Below the pieces are notes generated by a model. It did no database searches. It saw only the letters and a program-made list of their open reading frames with translations, and was not told the DNA's origin. From NCBI GenBank assembly GCA_051362555.1, contig CM120646.1:7874001-7938000 (forward strand): a DNA stretch of 64,000 nt. Reading direction: 5' to 3'. Position 1 is the stretch's first letter, and each line of letters starts with the position of its first letter. The position numbers and the translations under genes are program-made. Shown here in pieces: positions 13,929 to 39,921 of the stretch. This DNA is from Lingula anatina. Lineage: Eukaryota; Animalia; Brachiopoda.

Positions 13929-13972
<44 letters not shown>

Positions 13973-14151: not shown

Positions 14152-14269
14152 GACAAATCTTCAAACCATTAAATTATTTTAAAGGACAGAAAGGCACATT
14201 TAGTTCCCACCATCAGATGAATATGGAGTTACAAAAAGCAACACATAAATACACCACGTCCGCCTGCAT
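14037..14269 (-). pseudogene. Degenerate V fragment (14037-14151) fused by deletion to a frameshifted leader (14211-14269, +4 nt)
   Basis: Homology to 41057-41171 and to the 55-nt leaders. Confidence 0.75.
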
Positions 14270-15481: not shown

Positions 15482-15948
15482 GATCCCCCTTTGTGTTACT
15501 TTTCGTTGTTCATACATCAATAAGCTGCAGTCACTTTTCTATTGAGAGTTAAAAATTACGTCCCCACTGCTACCCTATACGCAAAATGGCACCGCAGTGC
15601 AACTAACACAATTAACTGTCGGTACAGAAAGTGATGATGTATAAATTACAGCATCATGGGATTTCTTAGTTGTGAAGGGTTGATCATTGCTGTGCTATTT
15701 TACGAAATATGTTAAGAGAGTGCAAATATTATTAACACATAGCAAAAAAAAAAAAAAATACCCAGAATATTCACAATTTCTTTGCATGGTGCATTCATAA
15801 AACTAAGTCCAACACTGTATGCTAAGCGTAATAAACTTTTGTGTATTTACAGTGCGTTTTAGCATAACTGCATTTAAAGTCAGTTCTGTTAAAATGCAAC
15901 CTTTGTAAAACACTTATTTTTATATTTTCGCAAGGAATTAAAAACTAA

Positions 15949-16775: not shown

Positions 16776-18520
16776 TGATAGAAGTAGCAGAGCCCGTGAA
16801 TGAAAAGCACTTCCGGTCGCACAGCAGTCGCCAGAGGACGCCCAAACAACGGTCATCTGTCTAGCATAATATCGTAGAAAGATCGTAGAATGGTCGCCAC
16901 TGATCGCTGATGAAGGTACAGTAATCACACCCTGGTTGCTCAATGGATGCTCAAATATCGCAATGGACGTTGTAGGCTGCACAGTGGACTCACATGGGAG
17001 TTGAAAGTCATTCAGGTCGCTGTTAATTGGACATGAAATCCAGCCTTGGTCGTTGAAAACACACATAAGGGTAACAGACACATTTACAAGGACACGGTTT
17101 TCTTGCATTGGCGACCATTGAGCGTCCTGCAGGCTACATCTTTGGTCGTAGAGAGTCGCAGAAAGCATGCATTCAGTTATGGGGGCTTTAGTGATACACT
17201 GTATTTTGTCGTGCTATTTCTACACTGTAAAGCATATATCGATTTTATCAATGGACATTTTTTATGTCATTTTGAGTCTGGAGTTCATTGTCGCACAAAG
17301 TGACTGCCAAATAATTGCATGGACGTGGATTTTATCAAAAGGGTTTTATTTAACAACAAATACGCACATAAAAACTTGTGACGCACAAATTGTAATGAAG
17401 AAATTCAAGAAGTTTTCAGTGTTGTTTACTTTTAATTTCATATTATTAACCTTATTATTTACGGATTTTTAATCATATAGAACAATTAAAGGGATTAATA
17501 AAATCGGTTTTAATATAATTTATTCCAATGTTAAAATTTTAATTTAATTTAATTTTGATTTAAAAATCACAGAACAACTTTATAATACATGTATGCCTAT
17601 ACGTAAAATAAAATAACCCATGTAACAGCCAGATAAAAACATCTGTTAATATATAAACGAACTGTTTCTTGGCATCCATAAAAACAAACCAATCTAGCTT
17701 TTAGGTGAAAAATGCTTATGTATTAATTTATCACATACACCGTTCGACATGTATATTCCTCACTGCAATACTTACTTACAATTGATTAAGCTAGCGACAA
17801 TTCCTATAAAACCCATAAGTTTAGGCAACAGGTCGAAGACGCTAAAAGCAATAAATGATGATTTATATATCTAGGAATAAATATATTTAAGCAAAGTAAT
17901 AAGCAACACATTGACACAGTGAAAGCAAATTCTTTGAATCGTCATACGTAATGTGAAAATGCAACGCAGTCTTGGAAAGTAACAAAAGTATTACAGCCAA
18001 TACCAACAAGTTTTCAACAATTAATTGATTTTATTAATGCCTTAAATCACAGATGTGCTCCCTTAACAGTTTAGTCGTAGCTTGCGACACCAAACTAGCA
18101 TGTTATCATAATTCAATACTGTACAGTGTGAAAATACTTAAAATCGGAATCAATTACTATAAAATGTTTTGGATGCGTCATATACTTGTATGCAAGAAGC
18201 ATAACACTTTGATGATTGTATGACATATGCATGTAAATTTAAATGTCTTCAAGTCATTTTGTTATACATTGAACATTGTGGATCTTTTTAATTACGAACC
18301 AAGTACATGTTGAGAGGTTCCTGACTGCATGTATAACGAAACATCTTCAACTATTGTACTGCCACAAAATGTGGAGTTCAAAATCGTTAAATCTGCAATT
18401 TTCATGATAATTTCCTATTATTTAAGGGTTTAATATTTTTACCCTTAGGTATATTATACAATACAATCACTCATCTGGGCCACCTTTGAATTGACTAGTC
18501 TTGAGGTCATCCTTGGAAAA

Positions 18521-18897
18521 TTAAATGTAATTATAGTCACCAATACCATTTGTGGCGGTAGACGGCAATAGGTTCTCTCCAAGTTCCATGTATTGCCCAT
18601 CTGAACGGTTATCCCGCCGAAGTTCTTCGTAACTATTCGCCAATGCAGTATCGTCATAGTCAACATGAACCTCATCAAAACCAGAGGAATGATCTGTCGC
18701 GCGATTCATAGATACTTGGACATTGAATGGACTGTTAACAGTGTTTGTAATAACACTGCCATGTTGCTGTTCAGAAGCTTGTGATTTGAGTCTCCTGGAC
18801 AATGACCGAGTGCGGAATACAAGGTATGCAATTATGCAAAAAAGGCACATTGCTAACAACGATACCACAATGATTGATACTGTTCCCCCATCAATGC
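18521..18897 (-). CDS. IgSF gene B, type-1 TM + cytoplasmic tail exon (ITAM-like YEEL-x9-YMEL, terminal YNYI)
   Basis: tttcAG acceptor, phase 1; TM VSIIVVSLLAMCLFCIIAYLVF then basic RTRSLSRRLK; TAA at 18521. Confidence 0.88.
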
Positions 18898-19402
18898 CTG
18901 AAATACAAAAGATATAATTTAAATGGGTTGCCAAGTATAATCCTTTCTGATTTTTGTTAACTGAAACATAATATACCCATTGGTACGACCACACTAAAAT
19001 ATTCACCCGGAATGTCTAATGATCTACAACGTTCACATTAATTTATAAGGATGGTACAGAAGCATAGTTAGTCGGATGAGAGTGTCCCAGTACCAAGAAG
19101 AGAGGGTGATGGATACAGATTATCGAGTAGAAGTTATCTGACTTTTTTCAACTGAAACATAATATACACATTGGTAGCTCAACTGTAAAATATCAACCCG
19201 GAATGTCTTATGATGTGCCACGTTCACGTTTATGATACCGAAGCATGGTTAACCGTATGAGAGTGTCCCAGTACAAAGAGGATTATCAAGTAGAAGTTCA
19301 CGGTCGGTTACCAAAGCCCCCACCCCGCCCACCCCTTCAACCAACAGGTACTGAGTACTGTACACCTCAGTTTGTGTTCCGCAGTGCTCTTGGTTTAATT
19401 AC

Positions 19403-19423
19403 ATGTTGTTGTAGTTGGAGACA
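19403..19423 (-). CDS. IgSF gene B, 21-nt stalk micro-exon (VSPTTTT)
   Basis: tttgcAG/GTAATT, frame-preserving, conserved at 28884-28904. Confidence 0.55.
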
Positions 19424-19711
19424 CTGCAAATGTGATATAAGAGAAATACAAAACAGACTATAAATGAATAAATAAATATGTAACCAAGTATATTCCCTGA
19501 AAAATAATAAGCGTCACCTAAACTGACTAAGATTGTTTGTATTACAACTGGAAAGGTTGTGGTTGAATGTAAACCTGTATGATCTTCCAATTGGCTATGC
19601 CAGATAAAGCGTGAGAATTGACTTAAACCAACGCGTACCTAATGGTTGGGTTAAAAAAAATTTATCATATTTTGAAGCAAACGAAAACAATTTACTCCGA
19701 ACTGCACCTAC

Positions 19712-19747
19712 CTGCTGTAGATACGGCAACGCTGCTAGTTGAGAGAG
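19712..19747 (-). CDS. IgSF gene B, stalk micro-exon (ALSTSSVAVSTA)
   Basis: ttttcAG/GTAGGT, 36 nt, phase 1-1. Confidence 0.78.
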
Positions 19748-20423
19748 CTGAAAAAACATAAAGAGGCACTTATTATTCAATCGACTACTTTGGGCTTGTC
19801 GATTCCCTTGCAAAGACAAATAATGCAGAAATTTGGAGCAATAGAATAAAACGAGAACTAGTGAGTGTTGGAGTATATTTTTGGTATCAGAACTGTCATA
19901 GATCAATGTGACTATATCATTTTAAATATTGCAAACTTCTAAGAGTTACCAGGCTTTTTGGTCCACTTTTTGAAGGATATTTTACCTTAAAAACGTAATG
20001 TTTAAGGCACTCTATTCGGCGTTTACCTGCCAAATTGACTTTTGAAAATGACAATTTTAACTTACAAACAAATCATTGACGGCAATTGGAATCGATTTGT
20101 TTCTAAATAACTTCTTGTATATTTCAAAAATAACAACCGACGTCAGGCACTTCTATTTTAGGGAGTTTTTATTATAGTTCTTAACGTCTGTATTAAACAT
20201 TGGAAATAATTCATAAGTGTACATTTTATCTAAAATATATCTCTACGGCCCAAGTAGATGTGCATATAATAAATGTATGGATGTGCAGTCCATGTAAATA
20301 GGTCAAACAGGATAAGGTATAAGAAATGAATGGGGGACTTAACACGTCCATTCTTTTTTATCAGGACAAATAGTTTTAAAATAAGCAATTAAGAAAAATA
20401 AATCCAACATAAATTGTACCTAC

Positions 20424-20462
20424 CTGCATTAGTGGATTTCACAGTAGTGGTAGTTGAAGGAG
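20424..20462 (-). CDS. IgSF gene B, stalk micro-exon (APSTTTTVKSTNA)
   Basis: ttttAG/GTAGGT, 39 nt, phase 1-1. Confidence 0.8.
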
Positions 20463-20734
20463 CTAAAAAGGGAATTCAGTCACTTCTAAAGATAAGAAAT
20501 AATAAATGTACCTCATGCACATCCACAAGCCAAGAAGAATGATTTAGAAAAGCAGTAAAATGAGCACGCACAGGTATAGTGTTGAAATATGTTTTACAGA
20601 GTATGTTACAAATAAAGATATAAGCTCTTTGCGGTAAAGTTTAGGTTTTTCCAGCTCTTTATTTTTTGTTCTCAAGTGAAATGAAATGATCAAACTACCA
20701 ATCCGAGTAAAATACACGAACCAAATATACATAC

Positions 20735-21046
20735 CAGCACTCCCCGGCACTATAACACTTGTTTTGGTTTGACTTGTAAGAGAATCGTGCAGTAGTTGGC
20801 AAAAAACTTCAACTGGATCTGCTTGGGTTGCCATCACTTCTACTTCACTTTCCACCAGAAAGGTGTCTCCCTGGGGTGTCACCGTGTTCGAGGTTTCATT
20901 CATCTTGACCTGCATCTGGTTAGAACTTTGCATTTTAAACCACTTTATCTCAGGTGCTGGTCTTCCGCCATCAGAGGAACAAGTTACCCGGTAGGTATCT
21001 GTGGCGACTTGAGGTCCTCTTGTAATCTGGGGCGGGTTCGGCCGAT
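20735..21046 (-). CDS. IgSF gene B, C2-set Ig domain exon
   Basis: 312 nt, AG/GTATGT, CSSDGGRPAPEIKW...FCQLLH. Confidence 0.92.
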
Positions 21047-21223
21047 CTGCAAATCATAAATTATAACATAAAAGAAAATTATCGTAAAGCTCAACAATTT
21101 GTGAAACTACCCCATGTGAACGTTTTAAGTTCTATTTTTTGGTTTGAGGAATATTATTTAGTAAAAGACAAAGCAATTACAAAAGTTTTTATTAGCATGA
21201 ATATTGCACCGACTTTTACTTAC

Positions 21224-21598
21224 ACAGTAATTTGAGGGCCTGGACTGGAGTCGTAAAAACGGGATTATTGAATGGGGCGGAAACTTTGCAGTAAAAATTA
21301 CCCTCATCTGCCAGAGTGACTGTAACAATTGTTAAAGTGAATGATGGATCAGAGACTGTAACCGTCACGTCAGATCTCGTATTATATTCGTTCTGCTTCA
21401 TGGCATATCCAGTAGAAACTTCTATTCCTGCTATTTGGTTTGCAGTGCCCGTTCCATCTTTGTAGAATACGACGTACTGCGCTGTCTCTCCGGGATCCAC
21501 TGTGTAACTGCACACAAGGTTTAACGGTTGTGGGTTGCCGCTCTCAGGATTCATGACGTACCCATGGGTCGGCAAATCAGCTAATGTTACCTCTAAAC
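21224..21598 (-). CDS. IgSF gene B, V-type Ig domain exon
   Basis: 375 nt, AG/GTAAGT, LVCSY...ADEGNFYC. Confidence 0.93.
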
Positions 21599-21944
21599 CT
21601 ATGGTATAAGCACATAGAATTACTATACTCATCAAAAACCCCAGGAAACGTCTAGCAAGAAATCTCTCAATTATCCAATTTGTATCCATGTATCTGAGAG
21701 TGTTCATTTCAGTGGTGAGTGTCACACCAGTATTTGAGGTGTATCAATCATTGCAGTCGGATTAAGATGGAAAGTTGCAAGTTAACCTATTGTGTTGGTG
21801 CATTGTGTTGACAGGCGTTGGACTGTAGTCAATAATACTGTATACCTGCATAATTGATAATTAGTTAGCAAAATTTACACAAATAGGCGCAGAAAGGTAA
21901 AAGGTCATGTTATTCTTCTTGCCTTATCATACCACTATGGCATA

Positions 21945-23803
21945 AGGGAGGTCAGGTCAACTTTGATAGTAACATAAATATCAGCCAAAATGATATTATC
22001 TGATAAAGCAATTTATGAGCTTTCCAAAACATTTTATTTTTTGAAAATCAAGCAAGCCAATCAAAAGTTATCAAATTTTCAAGAATGCTAGTCAGCCACA
22101 AAATTTTGAAAAAGTCTTGTATGCAAGCATTTGTAACAGTGGAAGCCAAAAGTGTCACCTAATTGCCCAATCAATTAAACAAAATTGGCATAACTTTTGA
22201 ATGGAATAAAATATCCATTTGAAATTTTCTGGAAAGTTACACTATGCCAAGAAGAATCTGACAAGATACAATTTTCTGTAATTTATCCATTATTTCCATG
22301 GCAACCATTGCTAAATATCAATAGCGGTCGATACTTTTTTTTTTTTTTCATCCTAAGGCTTCAACATCACTGCCCAAAGGCTACTTTTGGATGAAAATGA
22401 TGCTAAATAACGTGCCGTAATTAAAATAAAAAATAATAGTTTCTAATGTATCTGTTGCTATAGAAATTGTCATTATGATAGCTGTTGCTATGGTAACAGT
22501 TTGAATTATTTTTTACACATTATCATGAATTTTTAAACTGAATATGAAGTGGGAAACACTCTTGGTACTCAGTTTATGAATTTAAGTTAAATAGTAAACA
22601 AATACTCTGTCACTGTTGCCATGGCAACCAATATTACAATGACAATTGCATATACGATTTTAAGGTTTAACTAGTAAAAATGCCAGAATGCACAATGAAA
22701 ATAAATAATATCCGATTTTGGTAAGTTATAATTTTGCAAAAAAAAAAAATTAATTGATATTGGACATCATAGCAGGTAGGTAATACAAAAACCAGCGAGA
22801 TTTTTTGGAGAGAGTTTTAGGAATTTTCTTTCTTTTTTTCTTTTTTTTTTTCTTTTTTTGTGTGTGTTAAGAAAAAATAAATAAATACTTCTTTTGTTCA
22901 CTTTTGTTCGACTTTCATTAACCATTCTAGAGTTATTGCATATCTCCATGATTTTAAGATTCCCCTTTTTATGTTCACTAACGAGTTAGCCCCATCAATA
23001 TCGTACGTAATTTCATACTTTGTTTGAAAAATAAAATAAACTCTATATTCTTGAATTGCAGACGTTTTATCAATATCATTGGGTTTCGTGAACAATTCAA
23101 AGATTTTCTGATTAGATATTCTGATATGTTGATCCTCTTTGGGTGCTGAAAGTACAGTTGCTTTTTCATCAGCAGAACAGCTTGGTGCGTTCGCCATTTT
23201 GTTTGCCGTAAGATCAAAGTCACTGATTTTCTAACGGCTGTTACGGCTCTGTCTTACCAAAAAATGATAAATAGATAACTAAATTGAACCAAGAATTAGT
23301 TTAATTATCTAGGTAGGGGTAACAGAATTTTCAGAACTTCGTTACTCTAACTGTAAAACACGATTAAAAACTTTACAAGCTAGTTGTGGTTGCTGTTTTC
23401 GGTTAAATCAACTTCTGTAACCCCTCAGTCGAACGGTTGGATCATTCTCTGCATGAATATGTGGCCAAATACGACGAAATAACATCCGGGACGCCGTACG
23501 GAGCTTTTATTTTAGAAAAATGGCGCGAAACGCGCAGGTTGAGCAAAATTCTTTAATAGTGGGTACCAAACGAGGAAGTGAAATCACCGGCGATTTCTCG
23601 CAGCATTTTCGTGGCTGGAGGCTAACAACAGAGACATGATACATTGTTACACATATTGTTCGAAAGCCCATTCAATGCACTTTTTAAATATACTTTCATA
23701 TTTATCATAGGACCCAAATCCTGGAAGTAATGATGGAAAACAAACAGCGAGGTTAGATTTCTTCCCGTTTTCGACTGCGTGAGCGGTGTGACCTGACCTC
23801 CCT
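21945..23803. mobile_element. Non-autonomous TIR DNA transposon (~1.86 kb) in intron 1 of gene B
   Basis: TIR AGGGAGGTCAGGTCA...TGACCTGACCTCCCT; TGGCAT repeated in both flanks; absent from the paralogous intron of gene A. Confidence 0.8.
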
Positions 23804-24107
23804 AGTGGCATCAAAAACTTCTATTGGGTGCGTAGTACTCCTACTATGAAGGAAGTATTTTTTACGATTGGCCTCATAATATAACCTAAAGAGCCATAAT
23901 AATTTTTTTTTATCGTAAATGTTAGAAATTGTCATCATCTTGTTTAAAATGGCGTGTGAAGTTGTTTTTGTTCTTTATCTTTTGAAAACGCGCCACGTGG
24001 GGGGTCTATAGAAGCGATCATCCTGTTGTTTATGCGGAGGTTAAGCTGACGAATCTTCAAGACTATTAAATTATTTTAAAGTATAGAATATCATGCTTAG
24101 TCCCTAC

Positions 24108-24162
24108 CTTCAGTTGTATATGGAGTTACAAACAGCAGCACATAAACACACCACGTCTTCAT
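24108..24162 (-). CDS. IgSF gene B, leader exon (MKTWCVYVLLFVTPYTTE-G)
   Basis: 55 nt, phase 1, AG|GTAGGG donor. Confidence 0.88.
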
Positions 24163-24830
24163 TTTTCCTCCGTGATGTTGCCTTTAGCCGCAGGTACAGG
24201 TACTTCCTGGGGTTTTTTTATTGGCAGCTAAAAATAACAACCCCGTCGCTCCCCGATAATCAACAAAACACACCTAACACAATTAACCTGCTGTATACAG
24301 AACGTTATGCTGGAAAATTTTCAGCATCGGTAAATTACTGTAGGCCTACTTGAGAGTGGATCACTGCTATTCTATTTTCCGAAATATGTCAAGAAAGGGC
24401 AAATATTATTGAAATCGCTCTTATAAGGACTTGGCTTCATAGGTACATAAGGAAACTGTCAAGTGATTGCATGATGCACGAAAATGTTTTATAAGCGGTT
24501 TTATTTAATAATAAATGCGTGCATGAAAACCTGCAATACAAAGTCTCTAGTAGAAATTCAAGCGACTTCCATTTATAATATTATTGTAAAATCCCTTTCT
24601 ACAAATCTAATTTGTACTCAAATAATACAATTAAAGGAATAAACAAGCAAACATACGAATAAACAAGCAAGCAAGACTTTAATTTAATATCAGCCTAACT
24701 ATCCAGCACTTTTTAAATTAAAACACAGAACGGATTTTACGATTTTTCTCATCCAAGAACATTTGTCTTCAAATAGGACGTAAAGATTAAAACACTTGGT
24801 TAAAATATAAACTATAAACTACAAAACATA

Positions 24831-25783
24831 GGCCACACTTTTTTATTTTCATGGATGACATCCTGCGCGCGCACCGATTTTCGTCCGTTCTCCAAAAAAA
24901 AAAAAAACACCTCCAAGGAAGTCGGTTGTCGCAAACGTCGTTATTGAATTTGCCGGAAAATGCAATCGGCAATCCTCGGCTAATTCCGCAAGCTCCATAC
25001 TGTCATTGTCGAGCGCGGAGACATCCGAGTAGCTCCGAGTGCGGAAAATGAGCTTTCTGTGCATGCGTATTATCACCACATGGAAATATGGCCGCTTGCC
25101 GTCAAATTCATCTCTAGCATTAATTTCAAAATACACGACAATTAAAGTCATAAAGAGAACGGGGGCCGTCGTTTTGGATTGGTTTGCCATTGATATTGGA
25201 CATGGAGATATCACCCTTTTACAGTTATACAAAATGCTGATCATCACCCGGAAAATTTCAGTGACATTCTGTCCAAAGCAGCACATACCAGGTTTTTTTT
25301 GTAGCGTAAAAAGGGTCGACAAGAGCGTCGTGGTATTTGGTGGACTGAAGGTCGGGCAGGCCACCCGATAGTTGGCTGCTACGTGTGAGTCGAAGTAGAC
25401 AAAATGGCATCGACCGAAATTACCTTTTTTAGATTTGGTAGTACTGTAGGAAGCATAGGCCTATCTTTGCCTCATTTTTTTAACAATTCTGTGAAGTGTT
25501 TACAATGCTTTAATTTTCTGAGAGTACAAATAAAGACACGCTGTTTATTTGATATTTGTTTTATTGATTGCTATACCAACAAAATGCATGAAATAACCTT
25601 AAATAGATTTGGTAATATGCAGCATTTATATTCATGACTTTTTACCTTTCTACGAAGTAGGCCCTATTTACAATGCTTTAATATTTTGAGAGCATGGATA
25701 AAGACATATTGTTAGTTTGATACGTGTTTCTGTGGTAAATTAGTGTTTCCAGCTGTGTACTGAAAACATAACTTTTCTTAAGC

Positions 25784-25816
<33 letters not shown>

Positions 25817-25907
25817 GACTGTTTTTTTTTTTTTTTTTTTTTCGCCCGCTCGCACCCATTTTGGGGTCCCCAGAGGATGTCATCCATAAAAATAAAAAAG
25901 TGTGGCC
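24831..25907. mobile_element. Non-autonomous TIR element, 3-bp TSD
   Basis: ~34-bp TIR GGCCACACTTTTTTATTTT(C/T)ATGGATGACATCCT, ATA on both flanks. Confidence 0.82.
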
Positions 25908-25915
25908 ATAAGTAA

Positions 25916-26225
25916 AACTAGAGAAGCACTCCGAGAGCGCAGACCTCCGCCAAGGCAGCAAAGTCTCCACCCAATGCCGTTTCACCCCTAAATTTTCATT
26001 CTATAATGATTTAGTTTTTTTATATTATTGATTGATTAATGATTCTGATCACTACCAAAAACTAACCATCTGTTCCTTGGCCCACTTCTGACAATTCCTG
26101 AAAATTCCATCAAAATCGGTCCAAAACTTTTTCTGTAATGTTGCTAACAGACAGATAGACATACATGTATAGACAGACAGACAAACTAACGGAACTTAAA
26201 TCATAACCTCCTTGGCGGAGGTAAA
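25916..26225. mobile_element. Helentron/HINE-like short element
   Basis: IR ACCTCCGCCAAGG...CCTTGGCGGAGGT, internal (ACAG)n, A-rich flanks. Confidence 0.65.
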
Positions 26226-26816
26226 AAAAACCTATCTAGCTTTAAGTAAACAATGCTAGCGTTTAATCCTTCACACACACGGTTCATCAGGCTCATACAT
26301 ACAAAATTATCAACGCTTGATAAAGGTAGCTATGGTTCGTATACAATCTGAAAGATGAGGCAAGCTGGCAGTTCTATAAAGTTATAATTGGCTAATAAAT
26401 GATATATTTTAAAATGAATTCTTCATTTAAACAAGGCAATACCATTTGTGAACGACTGTATAAAAATACAATGAATCTAAGGCGGTTCTTTACAGTGATA
26501 TCTTAACAACACATAGTCAGAGTAATAATAGGTAACATTGATTTCTAGGTCTTTCATCAAAATATGAAAATGCAACACGACACGGTGTGTTCACTCCCAC
26601 ACCCGCCAACACACACACACGCGCGCGCACGTGCACACACGTAGACGCACACAGAAATTTCTAGCATAACACATTTCACCTCTTATTGATGTGTTTGTAT
26701 GCAAATATTTGGTATTTTAAATTGACGGGCATATAATTAAGCTCAGTAAGGATGGAATCTAAAAGAAATATAACAAAAATACTTAAATAGATAAATAGAT
26801 ATTAAAAACATATATA

Positions 26817-27050
26817 CACACTGGACAATAGAATTGTCACCCCCTGAATCAGAGTAATCAAAGTTAAAATGCTTGGTCTACTTAAAATGTAACTAATGAG
26901 TATAAAACCACTGTACAATGGAATTGTATTGTTGGTCTTTTTGTGAAATCTGATGTTAATAAAATGAAACCAGGAGCATATCATTCCACTGTCATTTATC
27001 TCCCCCAAAGTATTAGTTCAGTAGGGGTGACACTTCTATTGTCCAGTGTG
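26817..27050. mobile_element. MITE (Tc1/mariner-like, TA context)
   Basis: TIR CACACTGGACAATAGAA(T/G)TGTCACCCC; absent at the paralogous site ~39300. Confidence 0.75.
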
Positions 27051-27976
27051 TGTATCTTAAAAATCGAGAAAAAATATTTTTAAATTTTTTAAATAATTTC
27101 CAAATCCTTATGTAACACTACACATTGCGCTAACGGTTTTAAGTGATTCTTACAGAGCATAAAACCTCAATGTAATAAAAGCCAATCATTTATAAAAGAT
27201 TATTGAGATATATTCCTCAATGCAATACTTACTTACAATTGATTAAGCTAGCGACAATTCCTATAAAACCCAAAAGTTTAGGCAACAGGTCGAAGACGCT
27301 AAAAGCAATAAATGATGATTTATATATCTAGGAATAAATATATTTAAGCAAAGTAATAAGCAACACATTGACACAGTGAAAGCAAATTTTTGAATCGTCC
27401 TACGTAATGTGAAAATGCAACGCAGTCTTGGAAAGTAACAAAAGTATTACAGCCAATACCAACAAGTTTTCAACAATTAATTGATTTTATTAATGCCTAA
27501 AATCACAGATGTGCTCCCTTAACAGTTTAGTCGTAGCTTGCGACACCAAACTAGCATGTTATCATAATTCAATACTGTACAGTGTGAAAATACTTAAAAT
27601 CGGAATCAATTACTATAAAATGTTTTGGATGCGTCATATACTTGTATGCAAGAAGCATAACACTTTGATGATTGTATGACATATGCATGTAAATTTAAAT
27701 TTCTTCAAGTCATTTTGTTATACATTGAACATTGTGGATCTTTTTAATTACGAACCAAGTACATGTTGAGAGGTTCCTGACTGCATGTATAACGAAACAT
27801 CTTCAACTATTGTACTGCCACAAAATGTGGAGTTCAAGATCGTTAAATCTGCAATTTTCATGATAATTTCCTATTATTTAAGGGTTTAATATTTTAACCA
27901 TTAGGTATATTATACAATACAATCACTCATCTGGGCCACCGTTGAATTGACTAGTCTTGACATCATCCTTGGAAAG

Positions 27977-28377
27977 TTAAATGTAATTATAGTCACCAAT
28001 ACCATTTGTGGCGGTAGACGGCAACAGGTTCTCTCCAAGTTCCATGTATTGCCCATCTGAACAATTATCCCGCCGAAGTTCTTCGTAACTATTCGCCAAT
28101 GCAGTATCGTCATAGTCAGCATGAACCCCATCAAAACCAGAGGAATGATCTGTCGCGTGATTCATAGATACTTGGATATTGAATGGACAGCTGTTAACGT
28201 TGTTTGAGTGTTCTGTTACATTGTTTGTAATAACAGTGTTATGTTGCTGTTCAGATGCTTGTGATTTGAGTCTTCTGGACAATGACCGAATGCGGAATAC
28301 AAGGTATGCAATTATGCAAAAAAGGCACATTGCTAACAACGATATCACAATGATTGATACTGTTCTCCCATCAATGC
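27977..28377 (-). CDS. IgSF gene C, type-1 TM + tail exon (8 aa longer than in B)
   Basis: tacAG acceptor, phase 1; TM VSIIVISLLAMCLFCIIAYLVF; YEEL-x9-YMEL, YNYI*. Confidence 0.88.
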
Positions 28378-28883
28378 CTGTAATACAACAAATATAATTT
28401 AAATGGGTTGCCAAGTATAATCCTTTCTGATTTTTGTTAACTGAAACATAATATACCCTTTGGTACGACCACACTAAAATATTCACCCGGAATGTCTAAT
28501 GATCTACAACGTTCACATTTAATTTATAAGGATGGTACAGAAGCATAGTTAGTCGGATGAGAGTGTCCCAGTACCAAGAAAAGAGGGTGATGAATACAGA
28601 TTATCGAGTAGAAGTTATCTGACTTTTGTCAACTGAAACATAATATACACATTGGTAGCACCACTGTAAAATATCAACCCGGAATGTCTTATGATGTGCC
28701 ACGTTCACGTTTATGATACCGAAGCATGGTTAACCGTATGAGAGTGTCCCAGTACAAAGAAGATTATCAAGTAGAAGTTCACGGTCGGTTACCAAAGCCC
28801 CCACCCCGCCCACCCCTTCAACCAACAGGTACTGAGTACTGTACACCTCAGTTTGTGTTCCGCAGTGCTCTTGGTTTAATTAC

Positions 28884-28904
28884 ATGTTGTTGTAGATGGA
28901 GACA
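28884..28904 (-). CDS. IgSF gene C, 21-nt stalk micro-exon (VSPSTTT)
   Basis: AG/GT conserved with the gene B copy. Confidence 0.55.
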
Positions 28905-29192
28905 CTGCAAATGTGATATAAGAGAAATACAAAACAGACTATAAATGAATAAATTAATATGTAACCAAGTATATTCCCTGAAAAATAATTAGCGTCACCT
29001 AAACTGACTAAGATTGTTTGCATTACAGCTGGAAAGGTTGTGGTGGAATGGAAAACTGTATGATCTTCTAATTGGCTATGCCAGATAAAGCGTGAGAATT
29101 GACTTAAACTAACGAGTACTTTATGGTTGGCTTGAAAAGTTTTTATCATATTTTGAAGCAAACGAAAACAATTTACACCGAACTGCACCTAC

Positions 29193-29228
29193 CTCCTGTA
29201 GATTTTGCAGGTTTGTTAGCTGAGAGAG
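29193..29228 (-). CDS. IgSF gene C, stalk micro-exon (ALSANKPAKSTG)
   Basis: 36 nt, AG/GTAGGT, phase 1-1. Confidence 0.78.
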
Positions 29229-29257
29229 CTGAAAAAAACATAAAGAGGCACTTATTA

Positions 29258-32200
29258 CACAGCACAAAAAGTCAATTTTCAGCTCTTTTACTCTTCAGGA
29301 AATGGGTCTGAATATTCTCTTTACAAGCCTTTTCAACGGTGTAAAGCTCTACCGGAAAGGTCAGGGTCTACGGGTTTACTACCCTTTTATGCCTAAGCTT
29401 AAAATTGTAGTTGCACTATTACTACGTCTTTCCGATCAAGTATAGGCGTCTAAAAACAACCTCTTTACAACTCCTTTCCGATCAAATATAGGCGATTTTT
29501 GACACGTCTTTATAACCCTTTTCCGATGAAGTAAATGCGATATGAGGTATGTCATTATAACCCTTTTCCGATCAAATAAAGGCAATTTCAGGTAAGTCTT
29601 TACAACCCTTATCTAATCAAATATGGACGATTATAGTTATTTCGATTACTTATAGCACTGATAATGTTTCAAATTCATGTAGCATTTCATTTAATGAGAG
29701 GAAGGCTTGTGAATTTTCATTTATAGTAATTTATTGCAAAAAACAACAACCATTACAATGCAGTGGGGATTATGTTTATAAAGCGCAACACAGCTACTAT
29801 ATTTCACAAGTGGAAAGTAATCTTACACTAATGTATTATTTTGTACACTCATTATACGCACACCCTAAACAATAGCGAATACCATTTAAAATATACCTAG
29901 TAAAATAATTACGCAAATAAATACGAACCACATTTAAATACGACTTTCCAGAACAAAATCTAAGCAAAAGTACAATTATAGGAACGTCACAGATTCATAA
30001 ATAGAGGCTTTTTCCATTATTTATCTGACATCTGGTAAACATATGAGGAAAACGAAAACGACTACTACTTATCCATCGACTTAATGTATTTGCAGAGAGT
30101 GGCCACTCGTTAAATAACATGCCAATTATGTGTGCCCTAATTGCCCGACCCCGTTTTAAGAATTACACTCATTAGGTATTTTTGTTCACATTGAGTAAGG
30201 CGATGAAGCCAAGTTTCCAAGCAAAGATGAAATATTGTCACCAAAACCCCTACAAAATGCGTAGCCTAAAGAAATAGAATAACATTAAAAATACGGGAAA
30301 ATTAAAAAGAAGAGAAACGCAACACATTTTGTACCTGAAATATCCGACTAACTTAAAGTATTTAATCAAAATCAAATAAATGCTGCTCAAATTCTAAGAG
30401 AAAAATTTACTTTCAGAATAAATCTGTAGAAAATACAGCTAATTATTTCTTGAAGTGTGTGAAACGTTCATGTTATTTAGCGTGATTCGTGAAGCACCCC
30501 ATTCACGCGACTTGTGAATGCAATTGTTTATTCTCCACCCTTCGTGAAACGAAGACATTATACCCGGTGATACGTGATTTTCAGGATATTTTTAAAATGC
30601 CTACTATCAGTGAGATAATAATGCACTGTAATTTGTGCATTGATGATTTAGCTTCCCGCGTACTGTAGTCATTTGGACTTTCAAGAATGGGCCTGAATTA
30701 TTACATATCAGTTTACTTGGGATCACAGCAAAATAATATACAAATATATGTTCAAATATAAGAAGTACTGATCTCATTGTAATAACAATATATATAAAAA
30801 CAGTAAGTAAAAATCAATCACCGTAAAGGAGATATATTAACATTTTTCATGTTGAATACTGTGGTATTATCTAATCTACAACTTTGGATTCTAATCGTCC
30901 TTGCGTGTAAATTATTTTCCACACATCAAATCGCCCTTGCGTGTAAATTATTTTCCACACATCAATTTGAGCACTTCTTTAGCCTGGCACACCCCCGCGT
31001 CAGATATTTCTGCCGTTGCCCCTTTCAACGTCTTCCCTTTGTTCTGTGCTGCTATCGCCCTTTCCTTTTTTCCAGCGCGGTGTCCTTCTTAACGGTTTCT
31101 GTGAAGATATAACGAAATGATATCAAAATATAATGTGTAATAACGTATTAAACATAACTGGGTAAAGGGAACAGCATGTCTGACTAAAAAAAATTCAGAG
31201 AAATATCAGGATTGAGAATTACAAGAATGCATGTAGCCTACCATTACAACAGACATGGAGAATGTAATAAAATCAAAGACTTGGTAATTTATCAACACAC
31301 ATTGATAATCAATTATTAAAGATAAAAATACATGAATATTATGAAAATAACAAAAGGAATAAAACCACTTACTGTCTTCATCCTCTCGTTTTTCCTGTAC
31401 ATATACTCTGTACTCTGTCTCTGTGGCTATCTTCACACCACACCACATCCTCCCCTTTGTAGTTGCGATTTAACATTCGTTGTTTAGGGGTGGTCGGCTC
31501 ATGTCTTAGTTAAACTAACTCTTATCAAAATAACACGATCCAGGTCTGGGCCCCTAGGGACGTGTGTTTTGACAGCGCCCCTGGTTAAAAGCTTTGAGAT
31601 TGTTTTTAAATTTGGGACGTTAGAGTTTAGATTGAAGTATAAAAGTCCCTTAGATGCGTTATCACGTGTTTGTGAAGAGATGACAACGGTGATAGAACGT
31701 GCACGTGTCCGTCTTATAATTCTGATTCGAATTATGTTAGATAACTATTTATTGCCGTATTCAATATTATCGGCTGTTGTTTCACTTCGGTATGATGTGA
31801 GAGAGGTGTCTGGCCTCTGTATGTGTTTGACCTGAAGGCCGACTGTACGAGATACACACAGTGCGGCTGGGGAAACGAAAAAAAAGGGGGGTTGGACTGG
31901 TTGCAGAAAGCGCTTTTCGGTCAACAAGTGACCTTCATCAGCTGCAGAGTCCTGAAAAAAAGAGGGGGGGGACTGTGCTTAAACAAAGAAGTGAGAAACC
32001 AAAACACTTGGTTTAAGCCTTCATCACCGCGTTTGGAGAGAGGTTACATAAAAGATTAAATAGCTTATTGGCCACCATGCTGCTTGTTATATTGACCTCA
32101 GCTCATAAGTCATCTCTCGACCATCGTGTTTCAATGGTACTTCGTGTGAAAACTGTGTTAATTACTGGTAGCAATCCCCATACAAATACAACCGAATCCG

Positions 32201-33858
32201 GCTGTCATCTAAAGCAGGCCTGTCCTTCTCTGTCAAAGTCCAGAACTTATAAACAAAATAGCCGGCGATTTACTTATTTTCATGTGAAAAATGAATTTCT
32301 ATGAAGAAATCAGTATATTGCGATATGATACATTTTCATTAGCAGAAGCCGTGTAAAAGTGATACACGATGTACGTTTAATGTGCAGTGATTCTTCACTT
32401 ACGTGGTTTAACCACCTCCTCTTCGTCACCCACTATGAGCAAGATATGATCATCAATAGAAAAGTACTCCTGTTATATACGTATTACGGCACATCATACT
32501 GATAATGTTTGCTATATATCAACATATTTATCGCTGCTTAACCTTGCAAAATAACAATGGTCTTATAGTTATTCAGTTTTTCAAGCAAGGTTTTTTATGA
32601 CAGCTAGTTTAGAACTAATGGTTTACTTATGGTTCTAGACATGGTCTATCGAGCGAAATCTTATCGTGGGATGTACTACGATCAGTTGTGGGGCAACACT
32701 TATTCATCAAAAAAATTCTAATGCATCTCCAGTCAACATTGGTATTAAAGTATTTTTGTTTTCGTCTTTTAGCTGGATGAAATATTGAAGGAGACCGTGA
32801 CGTACATTGTTGTTAGTCGGGCTTTGTTGAAATTTCCCCGCCACCAGCGCATAGTGTGACACATCTTTATCCTTTTTTGTTTGTTCTCCGCTCAGTGTTG
32901 ATTAAATATTAGAACGTTTAACGGTCACCCGCTGGTTCTTCCAACTCCCTTATTAATTAAAGATTGGTTGCACCACTGCACACGCTGATTCAATGCATAA
33001 GCACTACGTCATTAGTGTAATAAACTTAAGATCTATTTAAACTGCCGCAGTCTATATCGCGATCGACTAAGGAATCTTTATTAATACACCTTATTAATTG
33101 AAAAAAAAAAAATACACTGACTGTGTATCATGATTTCACTGAAATGATTTTTACTCCGGAGACACCTTAAAACGTATCCTATAAAATCCAGATTGTAAGC
33201 GCAAGTGTGATTAACAATTTCTATAGTACAAGCGACAAGTTAAATGCTAGTCAGGTATGTTGCTGCAACCAGAGTTGCATATCCAAGGCCGCGGCCAAAC
33301 TTTTAATAATCAAACAGAATGGCCTTTGACCAAGTCTTATTCATTATAATTCATTGCAATTTTATGGAAATAATGATCATGCTTTAAATATAGACTTTGA
33401 TATCGCTTCTAAGCAATCTGTATTAATTTAAGAGAAATGAAATGATGAATAACAAAATATGATAAGCCCTCGGGGGAAGCTTCCTCAGGAGAGATGTTCT
33501 AATGATCGGGATGATCACGCCTTTCGACAGTATATACATGTAGCGCACCTAAGATAATAAAATGGAATTTTGAAATGAATTAACAATATAAATCTTTCAG
33601 TTCCATTGAAATCTCATGTTCTTAAATGTCAGTCACAATCCAATAACGACCGTCACATAATACCAAGGCGGAAAAACGTTGTTCAGTCGCGAAGAAAGAC
33701 GAACGAGATTACGCCTGTTGAAAGGCCGTGTAAAAGAGAAAGGGGTACTCCTGCGCGGAAAAACGTCATTCAGTCGCGCGTTGTAAAGGCCAGCTTGCAC
33801 TGTTCCGACGTCATTCCGCGGAGGCTGAAAAATCGGAAAGATTTGTTTTTGTGCTGTG
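29258..33858. mobile_element. CACTA/EnSpm(CMC)-like non-autonomous transposon, 4.6 kb, in a stalk intron of gene C
   Basis: TIR CACAGCACAAAAA...TTTTTGTGCTGTG, TTA TSD (empty site ggcacttattattcaatc in gene B), subterminal tandem repeats at 29420-29620 and 33665-33830; no long ORF. Confidence 0.85.
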
Positions 33859-34598
33859 TTATTCAATCGACAACGTGCCGAGAGAAAACTAATTATAATC
33901 CTTGCATCACTGGGGGCTTGTCGATCCCATTGCAAAGAAATAATGCAGAAATGTGGAGCAATAAAATAAAATAAAATATGAACGAGTGAGTGTTGGAGTA
34001 TATTTTTGGTATCGGAAGTCTCATAGATCAATGTGACTATATTATTTTAAATATTGCCAACTTTCAAGAGTTGAAAGGCTTTTTGGTTCACTTTTTGAAG
34101 GATATTTACATTTAAAACTTAATGTTTAAGGCACTCTTTTCGGCGTTTACCTGCCAAATTGACTTTTCCTCTGAAAACGACAATTTTCACTTACTAACAA
34201 ATCATTGACGGCAATTGGAATCGGGGTTTCATTCGATTTTAGTTTGATTTGTTTCTAAATTACTCACCAGTTATTTAGAAAGCTATGTCATCTTGTATAT
34301 TTCAAAAATATCAACCGACGTCAGGCACTTATATTTCAGGGGTTTTTATATAGTTCTTAACGTAAGAATTAGACTTTGGATTATTTCAAAAGTGTACATT
34401 TTATTTTACTTTTAATTCTACGCCCAAGTAGATAAACATATAATAAATGTACGGATGTGCATTCCATGTAAATAGGTAAAACCGGATAAGGCATGAGAAA
34501 TGAATGGGGGACTTAATACGTCCATTCTTTTTTATCAGGACAAATAGTTTTAAAATGAAGCAATTAAGAAAAATAAATGCATCATAAATTGTACCTAC

Positions 34599-34640
34599 CT
34601 GCATGATTAGTTGATTTCATAGTAGTGGTAGTTGAAGGAG
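34599..34640 (-). CDS. IgSF gene C, stalk micro-exon (APSTTTTMKSTNHA)
   Basis: 42 nt, AG/GTAGGT. Confidence 0.8.
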
Positions 34641-34910
34641 CTAAAAAAGATATTCAGTCACTTCTTAAGATACGTGATAATAATTGTACCTCATGTACAT
34701 CCACGAGCCAAGAAGAATGATTCAGATAAGCAGTAAAACGAGCACGCACAGGAATAGTGTTGAAAATGTTTTACAGAGTATGTTACAAACAAAGATATAA
34801 GCTCTTTGCGGTAAAGTTAAGGCTTTTCCAGTACCTTATTTTGGTCCGCAAGTGAAGTGAAATGAACAAACTACCAATCCGAGTAAAATACACAAACCAA
34901 ATATATATAC

Positions 34911-35222
34911 CAGCACTCTCAGGCACTATAACACTTGTCTTGGTTTGACTTGTAAGAGAATCGTGCAATAGTTGGCAAAATACTTGAGTTGGATCTGCCT
35001 GGGTTGCCATCACTTCTACTGCACTTTCGACCAGAAAGGTGTCTCCCTGGGGTGTCACCGTGTTCGAAGTTTCATTCATCTTGACCTGCATCTGATCAGA
35101 ACTCTGCATTTTAAACCATTTTATCTCGGGTGCTGGTCTGCCGCCATCAGAGGAACAAGATACCCGGTAGGTGCCTGTAGCGACTTCAGGTCCTCGTGTA
35201 ATCTGGGGTGGGTTTGGTCGAT
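34911..35222 (-). CDS. IgSF gene C, C2-set Ig domain exon
   Basis: 312 nt, AG/GT, CSSDGGRPAPEIKW...FCQLLH. Confidence 0.92.
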
Positions 35223-36029
35223 CTACAAAGTAGTACAATTATAAGTTACATATGAAATCATATCTTTGCCACTAAACCAAACCAAATGAAACCATATGGT
35301 TTCAAAAACATAGATATAACAAATGTTTTCGTCGAATACATTCAGAATATGATATTTAAGGAAGTATGTTCTGCTTTCTGTTTGTGCTACAGTATATATA
35401 ACCCTTTGTTGTTTCCATCAATAATCATTTGAATATTAATGTAATTGTTTGTGCAAAAATAATGCCCTACACATTACTACTTTATTTGGTGGACTTTTAC
35501 GAACCGGAGTCACGGATAAACAGAGTAAGTTTACGACCAAAATATTTTAGAAGTGCAGTTGTAAAGTTTTTCTTTGGCTGACCAAGTGATTAATTAAGTT
35601 TATCCTTTGTCATGTCGACTCTCTTTGAATCATATAAGAAAATAGTCGAAATTGTTAATATGCGTTATAGGGAACATACGCTTGCTTCATACATGTATGT
35701 AACTTAAACATAATACAACAGACGGTGCGCATGAAACATTCAAGAAGTATGAGAGTCATGCCGACATTTCGTACGAGTCTTTAAGATGACCCATTCATAC
35801 AATTACAGCTATATATGATTACTGGTGAAATGAAAGTGATAACACCTAGAAGATGGCGCACAACCTCTAATGGTAAACGCTATATTATTTCCATATTTAA
35901 GGTTTTGGTCCATGCCTACTAAATTAGTAATGATTTCCTCCCTTATTTCTTCTAAATCATCCTTAACTTTCAATACATCCTCTCTATGGACAGAAATCGA
36001 ACATGCTAATACTTCAGTGATTTACTTAC

Positions 36030-36404
36030 AGAGTAAACTAAGGATTTGCTCGTCAGTTGTCACGGTGGCTACATTGAATTCAGTGTTAACACGACATCTA
36101 TAGCTCCCCTCATCTGCCATGGTGACTCCACCGATTGTTAACGTGAATGAAGGATCAGAGCCTGAAGCCGTCACATCAGCTCTATTGGTATAGCTGTTGA
36201 ATTTCCTGGGAGTTCCATCAGATACCTGTATAGCTACTATTTGGTTTGCTGTGTCAGTTCCATCTCTGAAAAAAACCACATACGACGCCGTCTCTCCGGG
36301 ATCCACTGTGTAACTGCACATAAGGTTAAGTGGTTGTGGGTTGCCGCCCTCAGGATTCATGACGTATCCATTGACAGGCAAACCAGCTAATGTTACTTCT
36401 AACC
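36030..36404 (-). CDS. IgSF gene C, V-type Ig domain exon
   Basis: 375 nt, AG/GTAAGT, LMCSY...ADEGSYRC. Confidence 0.93.
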
Positions 36405-37011
36405 CTAAAAAAGGATATACATCTTTCATTTCAATGGCAAATGTAGCAAATGGCAATCCACCTATATTATCAAAAGAGAATAGAGATATTTATGTTATCG
36501 TGGGAAGCATTCAAGCCTGTGACGATTGATAAAAATGAACAAAATTCTGTGTATCAATCCTAGCAATTGGTTTGAATCTTAAGATGCTAGTTATTTGCAT
36601 TTGTTTTCTTGTTTGAACGGAGACAGGTATTGGATTGTTATAGTAAGCTTAGGTACTTTATCAAGGTTGGGCCAGTAAAATGAGGTCATGTCTGTTTATC
36701 CTTATTTCTGCAACATCCATCTTAATTCAATCGACTGCTAAGCATTTATACCAGGAAGTAATGGTGGGACCCGTCCCAGCCAAGATGAAGCTTTTTTAGT
36801 TACTTTATACCCCTTGCAGGGTAATTATCAAAAGATTTATTATGTTCATTTTTTGTTTTGATGAGGAAAATACCATTCTGTTGATAAATCGAGTAGGGGA
36901 GTTTGAGGAGGACGCATACCCCGGTATCTATGACCAAGGATAAGCTGAAATAATTTTTAGATGACTCATATACTTTGAAGCAGCGTACATTGCAACACGT
37001 TTACTTCCTAC

Positions 37012-37066
37012 CTTTAGTTGTATATGGAGCTACACAGATCAGCACATAAAGACACCACGTCTTCAT
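37012..37066 (-). CDS. IgSF gene C, leader exon (MKTWCLYVLICVAPYTTK-G)
   Basis: 55 nt, phase 1, AG|GTAGGA donor. Confidence 0.88.
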
Positions 37067-39921
37067 CTTCTTCCTCTGTGTTGTCTCTCGTCGAATGTAC
37101 CTTAATAAGCCGCAGTCACTTTTGTAATGAGAGGTAAAAATAACATCCTCCGCAGCACAACTAACACAATTAACCGTCCGTACAAAGTGTGTTGCTGTAT
37201 AAATTGCAGCATCATTGTATTTTTTATTTGTAAAGGGTAAATCATTGCTGTGCTATTTTCTTAAATAAGTGAACAAAGTGCAAATATTGAAACATTTATT
37301 TATAATACAAAGAAAAAAAACAGAACATTCACAATTTTTAATAAATGTGCTTTCAGAAACTAAGCCCGAAACTGGATGCTAAGTGTATTAAACTTATCTA
37401 TATTTACAGTGCATTTTAGCACAACTGCATCTTAAGTCACAAAGAAGCCTCAATAATTTTATTCTCCTCTTTTCACTAAAAAACTAATGGTAGAAGTAAC
37501 AGAACTCGAGACTAAACATTTCAGCACTCCAGGTTGCACAGCAGTCGCTAAAGGACGCCCAAAAAACGGTCATCGGTCTAACAGGAGGCACTAATCGCCG
37601 ATATAGATACAGAAAATGCAACGTTTGCTCAACGGACACTCGAACATGGTAAAGGACTCCGTAGGTTGCACAGTGGATGCACGGGGGAGGCAGGCAAGTC
37701 GTTCAGAAGACGCACAGACCGCCGGCAGTTTTACAGGAAATCTAGATTTGGCCGTTGAAAAGACACATCGCAGCAGAAAAAATAATAACATCACTGGTGG
37801 ATCAACATTATTAAGTCGGTGGGACATAAATGTACAGTATCCAGGGCCACACCTTTCTATCGAAGCCTATAAAGTAGCATATATACTCCCCCAGGAAAAA
37901 GTATCACTCATACCGCAGTTATGAATAGTACTACAAGGTACCCATATATTTAATTTATATATTGCATAACAACTAGTCATCCTATCATCATGTAAAAAAG
38001 GGGTGTGAGTGATGGGACATTGGCCTATCTAGCGTAACCACTGAGACCCAACACCGATTGTCATTTTTTAATGTGGCACGTAATTCAGAGGGATACATTT
38101 TTACCAATCGGCTGACACAGGAGCTAGTTTTGACCCGCCGAAGTGCCAGAAGGTTGGGGTTTTCCATAAGAACCATTCAGAGACCCAACCTACGATTGGG
38201 CAATGATACTGTTCTCAGCTGAAAGCAGGTTCAGCGTTGTCAGAAATGATGTGTTGGGTGTTGGGTGGGGAAGAGCCGATAAACAGTATCTTCCCAATTT
38301 TTCTGCCTCTGTCCCACAGTACGCGCCCCTCCCATACTGTAAGCCATGGTATGGGAATTCTGTCGAAAATATCTTTGGGGACGACATGTTAATTCCAGTG
38401 TTCACTTTCATAATGACATCATGTGATGTGATGTGATGTAATGTAATGTAATACTTTTGGTTTATATTAAACAAATGGAAGTACACTCATTGAGGTTGTG
38501 TTTTGTGCTGTAGACTATCATGTCACTAAATAGTTCATAAATAGACCGCAAAGTTTACACATGTAAGTAAATAATGTCATGTTATTTAATCGCCTTATAA
38601 TTCAACTTTTATTGGATGCTAACTACTCTTACAATGCAGGGATTTTTTGCGATCAATCTCATTTTACAAGGGTTAGCATCATGGTTATCTTAAAAGAAGG
38701 TTATATATTTCTTGTATCATTGATGTATAATTTGTCATCATCTTGATTAATAGGACGTATACGGTGACTTGTTCTTCAACCTTTAAAAATCTGTGCTACT
38801 TGGTGGATATATGGATGAAATTATCCTGTTGTTTATTAATTTTATACAACCTGAAAAGAGAGATGAGGCAACAAGCTGGCAATTCTTAAAGCTTGTAATT
38901 GGCTAATCACTTTTGAAATCAATTCTTCATTTGAACAAAGCAATATATACCATTTGTGAACGTTTGTAAGAAAATACAGCTAATCTAAGGCGGTTCTTTA
39001 CAGTGATATCTTAACAACACATAGTCACAGTGATAAAAAGGTAACCTTGACTTCTAGGTCTTTTATTAAAATGTGAAAATGCAACTTAATGGAGTGTGCA
39101 CCCCCACACCCGCTAACACAAACACGCGCACGTGCGCACACACGTTCACGTACAGACAAATTTCTAGTAGAACACATTTAAATTCTTTTTGATGAATTCG
39201 CATGAAAATATTTGGTATTTTAGTTGTTGGGCATATTATAAAGCATAATAAAATGGTATCTAATAAAATTTTTTAAAAATTATATATTGAAAACAGATAT
39301 CTTAAAAATCAAGAAAAAAGATATGCTAAAGTAATTTCCAATTCCATATGTCATACTACACATTACTCTAACTGTGATTCTTAAAAAAATTCCTAAAGAG
39401 CATAAAACGTCAATGTAGTAAAAACCAACTGATTATAAAAGGCAATTGAGAAAGATTCTAAATAAGAATTGACACAATATTCTATTATATTATAGTTGCA
39501 GGCAAGTAAGTTAGCATTTAATTATGCAAACTGACAGACATCGAAATGTGAGTTAAACAATACCAATACTTTTAGTTTTTGATTAACGAAAGTACATGCT
39601 GTAATTTTAAAATATAAAGTACTAATATTCACATTTTACTGCGTTATATAAAATACCCTTGTAAAGCTTCGTGTTTTAAGTTTCATACTCCAAAGATCAG
39701 ATAAGGTCGACAGAATGTTGTATATGTATATTATTAAAGTAATCCAACAGTGTAGATTGTGAATCTTTATATTTACATCTATTTACATCTATATTTAGAA
39801 GTTATTGTTTGCAATTGATCTGCAAAAACTGTCATATTTTCAAAATGTACGCATTAACGCGTATTCTACGCAATTGGATGTTTGCCTATTATTACGGTGT
39901 TACAATTTTGCTAATGGCATA

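Follow-up and report, generated by a model that had tools for sequence, protein, structure and literature searches.

How did two neighbouring genes come to share one back half behind two different fronts? The question is raised by genes B and C of a receptor cluster in the brachiopod Lingula anatina (assembly GCA_051362555.1, contig CM120646.1, positions 7,874,001 to 7,938,000; this whole stretch of 64,000 nucleotides [nt] is called the window). The window is eukaryotic, with a G+C content of about 36%, and self-comparison shows minus-strand genes and relics forming a tandem cluster across it. Here, we report that C is probably a hybrid: its promoter, leader and V exon, of a type kept in a nearby relic, stand on DNA, from the C2 exon to the tail, that was likely copied from the B lineage by ectopic gene conversion. 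The product would be a predicted signalling receptor with a different V domain.

Gene B (24162-18521) encodes 404 amino acids (aa) and gene C (37066-27977) encodes 413 aa; both are open, have GT-AG introns and lie on the minus strand, as do the other genes, the shared tracts, the downstream flank of C and the relic at 14757-15882 described below. Each consists of a leader, a V-set domain, a CD80-like C2 domain, a Ser/Thr-rich stalk, a transmembrane (TM) segment and a tail with a motif resembling an immunoreceptor tyrosine-based activation motif (ITAM), and the Pfam families V-set (PF07686) and CD80-like C2-set_2 (PF08205) pass the cutoff in both. The exons of B are the leader (24108-24162, in a 5' cassette of the type found in gene A and in relics near 11 kb and 14.2 kb), V (21224-21598), C2 (20735-21046), three Ser/Thr-rich stalk exons (20462-20424, 19747-19712 and 19423-19403; 19403-20462 with their introns) and TM plus cytoplasmic tail (18521-18897). 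Those of C are the leader (37012-37066, in a relic-type 5' cassette), V (36030-36404), C2 (34911-35222), stalk (34640-34599, 29228-29193 and 28904-28884; 28884-34640 with introns) and TM plus tail (27977-28377). About 2 kb of B intron 1 (21812-23917) is a high-copy repeat (contig depth 1400-4300, versus about 50-200 in single-copy-looking stretches), which accounts for the length of that intron.

Predicted RefSeq protein models (P0001-P0009) were used as paralogues from outside the window. The V exon of B matched five proteins, all L. anatina models from one 656-kb contig, and the nearest named relatives of B and C are L. anatina proteins. P0005 is 95% identical to gene A in V and 95% in C2. 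P0002 matches gene D at 96% in its first V domain, and its leader is identical to that of the relic at 14757-15882. The V and C2 protein trees held 14 domains each. Gene D and the first V domain of P0002 served in them as distant rows, and they were built without the incomplete final V of P0003, without P0006-P0009 and without the V relics. Sequence reads came from a DNA run (X2, used as contigs) and an RNA run (X16, used as reads).

The fronts of the two genes have different relatives. Neither intron 1 nor intron 2 gave a blastn match between B and C. An initial annotation, made from the letters of the window, had likened intron 1 of C to the relic at 14757-15481, and this was borne out (78.8% over 448 bp). 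Its likening of B intron 1 to that of A held for three blocks of 59-191 bp at 70-81%, with the qualification that the relic near 11 kb is at least as similar (72-77% in two long blocks). In a tree of promoter-leader DNA, C and its relic are split from A, B and two other relics with support of 100/100, and a grouping of B with C is rejected for the 5' cassette by the approximately unbiased (AU) test (9.9e-9). The V protein tree rejects it as well (AU, 0.0027): the V domain of C is 86-88% identical in aa to V domains of P0004 and P0002 and 66% to that of B, which forms a third lineage (62% to A). The C2 protein tree places B and C in one clade (88/89). The separate 5'/V and C2 trees that the initial annotation had proposed as a check are thus incongruent. 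Synonymous distance (dS) between B and C falls from 0.56 in V to 0.31 in C2 and 0.06 in the tail, whereas between A and B it is even (0.478 in V, 0.480 in C2). The discordance between the 5' and 3' halves of B and C is real, and the closest paralogues differ between the 5' and 3' parts of C, as in a chimera. Inspection of the protein had also hinted that the B V exon might itself be a mosaic with a C-like front and an A-like back, but this is not supported: 1178/5000 permutations reach its score, and synonymous distances do not fit.

The shared back half is of two ages. Self-comparison found two homologous blocks, 21066-19792 in B versus 35244-33914 in C and 19775-17752 versus 29257-27209, with 182 differences in 3285 aligned columns. 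The best break lies near 19540, with 141/1498 differences (9.4%) from C2 to intron 5 and 41/1787 (2.3%) beyond, a step reached by 0/2000 permutations. Differences number 27/312 in the C2 exon, 27/270 in intron 3 and 59/669 in intron 4, and then 10/505 in intron 6, 16/377 plus a 24-nt indel in the TM-tail exon and 12/768 in the 3' flank. Introns 3 to 6 are 90-98% alike between the two genes; intron 3 matches between B and C (89%) and in none of five other pairs (blastn). The older tract occupies 19541-21046 in B; the younger runs from the 3' part of intron 5 to past a putative polyadenylation signal at 18035 (17752-19540 in B, 27209-29021 in C, where a discontinuity at 27209 ends it). The initial annotation had called B and C near-identical from the C2 exon through the 3' untranslated region (UTR), introns included, which describes the last 1.8 kb and not the part upstream. 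Stalk exon 2 (B 19747-19712) differs from that of C at 10/36 nt, far above its flanking introns, as in a local burst or micro-conversion.

Between the two blocks, C carries a 4601-bp insertion (29258-33858, no strand assigned) that the initial annotation had passed over. It is absent from B, has 13-bp terminal inverted repeats and a 3-bp target duplication (TTA), and is likely a non-autonomous DNA transposon. Its ends start CACAG, which we take to resemble CACTA/EnSpm elements. No transposase family was above the cutoff among seven open reading frames (ORFs) of the insertion and two ORFs near B; a weak SepA match in the same scan was below the cutoff and was disregarded. Near the boundary between the two layers, a 1430-nt X2 contig over 19288-19584 has two differences to B (C has eight) and then departs from B; it may represent a third gene, or another haplotype, in which this tail follows different upstream DNA.

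Where the front gives way to the back was examined along the C2 exon, the only large exon common to all paralogues (81-91% alike). The initial annotation had recombination in the V-C intron and homology stopping tens of bases upstream of the C2 acceptor. Neither was supported: over the 57 nt that precede the acceptor, B and C resemble each other no better than shuffles do (918/2000), intron 2 has no B-C homology, and informative sites put the switch inside the exon. Across leader, V and C2, 60 of these sites are A-like and 55 C-like up to a switch at nt 94-102 of C2, after which the counts are 8 and 37 (22/20000 permutations). C itself changes from E-like to B-like near nt 127-134 (656/20000 permutations), so that, in window positions, E/P0004-like sequence would give way to B-like sequence around 35130-35085. 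Matches over the first 52 nt of C2 are 46 for A-B, 44 for B-C and 47 for C-E. Because the first ~100 nt are conserved in every pair, the breakpoint is loosely placed, and the first third of C2 is a zone of low resolution as well as the likely priming site. On these sites, a switch about 95-135 nt inside C2 fits better than one in the V-C intron; a switch exactly at the acceptor is possible.

The other end of the tract suggests which gene received it. B is collinear with the 12.3-kb flank of a third paralogue on both sides of 17752 (0/1000 shuffles on each side). C jumps at 27209 into the flank type of 39.4 kb (119/149); this downstream flank of C (26211-27208) is homologous to the second-tail-type flank at 39451-38843 and retains, at 26363-26211, the terminal segment of the tract in an older copy. 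C is therefore likely the recipient of at least one transfer, since it breaks with its own flank at 27209 while B runs on at 17752. The C tract is bounded on both sides and its recipient is identifiable, as in gene conversion. B appears to be an old, coherent paralogue of A, because it has an A-like 5' cassette, even dS, stalk-region introns shared with A (68-82%) and a tail like that of P0005, the probable allele of A (74% alike). The initial annotation had taken both genes for chimeras, which holds for C and is not supported for B, with its even A-B distances and its collinearity across 17752; one recombinant gene, C, suffices.

The proposed history is as follows. An older ectopic conversion, primed in the C2 exon, would have swapped the 3' half of C for B-type DNA and terminated in a non-homologous join at 27209. 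The transposon would then have inserted into intron 4 of C, and a younger conversion of 1.8 kb, in either direction, would have re-homogenised stalk 3, TM, tail and 3' UTR beyond it, the transposon perhaps acting as a barrier. At least two events are needed because there are two divergence layers, and a single event is not supported on that ground. Gene conversion of the 3' half is the best fitting of the options that the initial annotation offered, and its broader idea, that different 5' recognition cassettes are put before a common C2-stalk-TM-tail unit by shuffling in the germ line, is supported by the incongruent trees and the intron homology. Breakpoints with a step in divergence can be located at 19540 (0/2000), at the 3' end (17752 in B, 27209 in C) and, across leader, V and C2, at the 5' switch (22/20000).

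Several points weigh against this history. Within C2 alone, the A/B/C switch is not significant (1530/20000 permutations), and the first 100 nt of that exon are conserved in all paralogues (8-12 differences per pair). The B+C clade of the C2 tree is below the strong-support star threshold of the tool, the synonymous step from V to C2 is modest (34.7/87.7 versus 18/71.7 sites), and the C2 protein of B resembles that of E more than that of A, a closeness not seen in its synonymous distance. The link between V and C2 in C is known only from the assembly. Six positions (17816, 18520, 20718, 20743, 20745 and 20763) show only the C-type base, not that of B, in X2 contigs. RNA reads are mostly <95% alike (X16, 6/536 at ≥99%). 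P0001-P0009 are predicted models, several of which carry two or three V-C2 units and may be annotation fusions, and we infer the tail of gene A, which is outside the window, from P0005.

Of the other explanations, the one nearest to ours keeps C as a chimera and changes the mechanism: C would be a duplicate of the B 3' half that captured a neighbouring 5' cassette by unequal crossover or a deletion-type fusion. A plain fusion does exist nearby, where the 14.2-kb leader is joined at about 14152 to the middle of a V relic in a block (14153-12471) 95.6% identical to 41173-39493, and human FCGR2C arose by unequal crossover (PMC6786274). One simple exchange would, however, bring the downstream flank of B along, and the B-like DNA in C has non-B sequence on both sides, with the older copy of the tract-ending segment retained; the two layers also require at least two events. 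We regard this origin as unlikely. It is more improbable still that both genes are recombinant, or that B was the recipient, with an A-like leader and V placed onto a C/E-type C2 exon. The B C2 protein is indeed nearer to E (88%) and to the first C2 of P0002 (84%) than to A (80%), and B V has no close relative (best 69% among 10 reference V domains), but the synonymous C2 distance B-E (0.54) is not below A-B (0.48), stalk-region introns are common to A and B, and B has no break at the 3' end of the tract.

An assembly artefact, with haplotypes or paralogues misjoined or duplicated, could also account for the B-C identity at the 3' end; the junctions of C do rest on the assembly, and the 2.3% layer is, from general knowledge, within possible allelic difference. 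Such an error is very improbable given the 182/3285 differences, a longest exact B-C match of 201 bp (≤51 bp for any pair of C2 exons), a transposon that inserted cleanly and left its target duplication, and the occurrence of both B-type and C-type 3' bases in X2 short-read contigs. Stretches identical to B are present in the X2 contigs, and one such stretch (20976-21366) crosses from V over intron 2 into C2 with 0 differences; the contigs carry C-type bases as well, in intron 3 and at 3' sites. We give hardly any credence to a whole-gene duplication followed by fast V divergence under selection, with no recombination. The nonsynonymous distance between B and C is higher in V (0.27) than in C2 (0.04), as such selection would have it; yet introns 1 and 2 cannot be aligned, against a likeness of 90-98% in introns 3-6, V synonymous sites are as diverged between B and C as against A, and a closer relative of C intron 1 exists elsewhere. 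Unless the assembly is wrong, this non-coding incongruence already refutes plain duplication.

The 3' part that the two genes share includes the putative signalling motif. Both tails contain YEEL-x9-YMEL, which fits the ITAM definition Yxx[L/I]x6-9Yxx[L/I]; tail shuffles gave such a motif by chance in 142/20000 and 149/20000 cases. With a V/C ectodomain (Pfam), one TM helix (hydropathy) and an ITAM pattern in the tail, B and C have the layout of ITAM-bearing immunoglobulin (Ig) receptors. The motif is also present in P0005, has a spacing of 12 in the second tail type of the cluster (48% alike) and is unmatched in P0002; a word-indexed search found the ITAM-like tail only in Lingula proteins (2 matches among 262 candidates). 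The immunoreceptor tyrosine-based inhibition motif (ITIM) pattern [ILVS]xYxx[LV] was absent from the seven tails examined; with no ITIM partner among them and with differing V domains, B and C do not form a paired activating/inhibitory set of the KIR, Siglec or CEACAM type, as far as can be judged with nine predicted proteins standing for the genes outside the window. The V domain would bind a ligand and the tyrosine pair would recruit a kinase of Syk/Shark type, roles predicted from the Pfam domains and the ITAM-like motif only.

Exon coverage in stranded-looking RNA runs agrees with minus-strand transcription, and loose ends of RNA reads at 21600, 21046 and 20735 lie at or ≤2 nt from modelled exon edges of B. 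The reads are ascribed to relatives of B because they are mostly <95% alike. Among the X16 loose ends, those of 67 reads at 21600 and of 18 reads at 20735 gave the P0004 leader and stalk when translated by eye.

Around B and C, the cluster holds further genes, relics and pairings of V with tail. Gene A, the reference paralogue, is represented by its 5' part (5825-9671: leader 9415-9361, V 7658-7284, C2 6562-6251, stalk 5866-5825) and further stalk exons at 2927-2886 and 630-589, its tail lying beyond the window; its intron 2 holds a leftover V-exon 3' end with its own splice donor (7088-7014), which suggests an earlier V replacement or duplication in A. The relic closest to the 5' cassette of C (14757-15882) comprises a promoter region, a leader (15481-15427), intron 1 and a truncated V. 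Gene E (63593-61200) joins a B/C-like C2 exon (63282-63593, 87-89% in nt to B and C) to a divergent TM and short tail (22-25% aa alike); past its stop, two in-frame tyrosines with degenerate-ITAM-like spacing follow, and the tail may have been truncated. Gene D (56061-48560), also open, differs from the others in its leader and has a V and a C2 that are both divergent; its short C terminus is hydrophobic and predicted to be like a glycosylphosphatidylinositol (GPI) signal, and P0001, made of A-type V-C2 units, finishes with this same end. Stops or truncations mark further V relics at 46117-46439, 41136-41258 and 10321-10610, which indicate birth-and-death turnover in the cluster. Long inverted repeats with 21-bp tandem units (42653-43049 and 45022-45742) bracket about 3 kb, likely another DNA transposon.

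The C-type V is also found on P0004, whose TM-tail is 24-25% alike, has no ITAM pattern and ends EPTTV (a possible PDZ motif). In the predicted models, A-type V is paired with the ITAM-like tail (P0005), the GPI-like end of gene D (P0001) and an E-like stalk (P0009). The fusion at 14152 joins an A/B-type leader and intron-1 start to the middle of the V relic, and the block behind it (12471-14153 versus 39493-41173, 95.6%) has the second tail type, YNNL-x12-YTEL, open in the 13-kb copy of the tail exon and apparently frameshifted in the 40-kb copy. P0002 (XP_013384541.1) strings together a relic-type leader, D-type V, C-type V-C2, A-type V-C2 and B/C-type tail. This string reflects a fusion made during annotation, a haplotype of very different make-up or splicing that reads through from cassette to cassette. 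Tentatively, and with more doubt than confidence, the cluster may be a lineage-specific brachiopod complex of germ-line-shuffled immune receptors, a lophotrochozoan counterpart of KIR/Ly49, with the conserved C2 exon as recombination hub, at least four V types mixed with four or more back ends (ITAM-like tails of two kinds, one tail of PDZ type and one GPI-like end) and repertoires varying between individuals.

Among known receptors, a V-set domain with a CD80-like C2 recalls nectin/CADM/B7-like proteins, and RefSeq names P0004 "cell adhesion molecule 2"; matches of P0004 in PDB (CEA, CD276, SYG-1, nectin-4, nectin-2 and CADM4) have E values of 2e-12 to 1e-3, too weak to establish orthology. 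Members of the nectin/CADM family have a V-C2-C2 ectodomain and a PDZ-binding end. B and C have one C2 and end DYNYI, and P0004 ends in the possible PDZ motif EPTTV.

Closer likenesses are of process. In primate KIR and rodent Ly49, recombination places the ligand-binding domains of one gene on the TM/cytoplasmic domain of another, and domain trees disagree (PMC2213150); the Lingula locus likewise has tandem receptor genes, a front-back swap and discordant domain trees, with no sign of homology beyond the Ig fold. The KIR/Ly49 swap turns inhibitory receptors into adaptor-using activating ones, while the Lingula tail has its own ITAM-like motif. Human FCGR2C is also a hybrid, which takes its 5' exons from one paralogue and its last exons from a second and was formed by one unequal crossover in an 82-kb duplication (PMC6786274); the Lingula tract, of ~3.3 kb, has a boundary on either side and two layers. 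In a tandem Ig cluster with ITAM tails, dog CEACAM1 and CEACAM28 share a 2.3-kb conversion tract (identity 99% inside, 80%/92% outside), in which the leader and V-like N domain were homogenised and the tails differ, the reverse of B and C, with the same tail and different V (PMC2110893). The Xenopus XFL (FcR-like) genes, an expanded Ig-receptor family with intergenic exon recombination and birth-and-death, are vertebrate and have other domain types (PMC2413239).

The nearest invertebrate parallel is the Hydractinia Alr cluster of single-pass V-set receptors, many with ITAMs (there defined as Yxx[I/L]x6-9Yxx[L/I]), for which conversion or unequal crossing over has been suggested (bioRxiv 10.1101/2022.03.04.482883). 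The folds of Alr proteins are V, I-set and Fn3-like, and their part in allorecognition has been demonstrated, whereas the Lingula genes are V-C2 with a Ser/Thr stalk and known from sequence; the second domain of B and C is C2-set_2, followed by a short stalk, which places them outside Alr. We found no description of this Lingula receptor family, or of such shuffling in brachiopods, in literature that covered few subscription journals.

Shuffling of ligand-binding and signalling domains is well documented in vertebrate immune receptors and suggested for the cnidarian Alr genes. If the Lingula receptors are immune, the cluster would be a small, datable case of an invertebrate that lacks somatic rearrangement renewing specificity while the signalling tail stays constant. 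The likely mechanism, ectopic gene conversion acting repeatedly, has its counterparts in KIR, Ly49 and FCGR2C. The Lingula genes work by a process like that of KIR/Ly49, FCGR2C, CEACAM28 and XFL and belong to none of these families, nor to Alr: C is a real hybrid gene, made by a process of a known kind, and the brachiopod receptor family to which it belongs, with its ITAM-like tail, has apparently gone undescribed.

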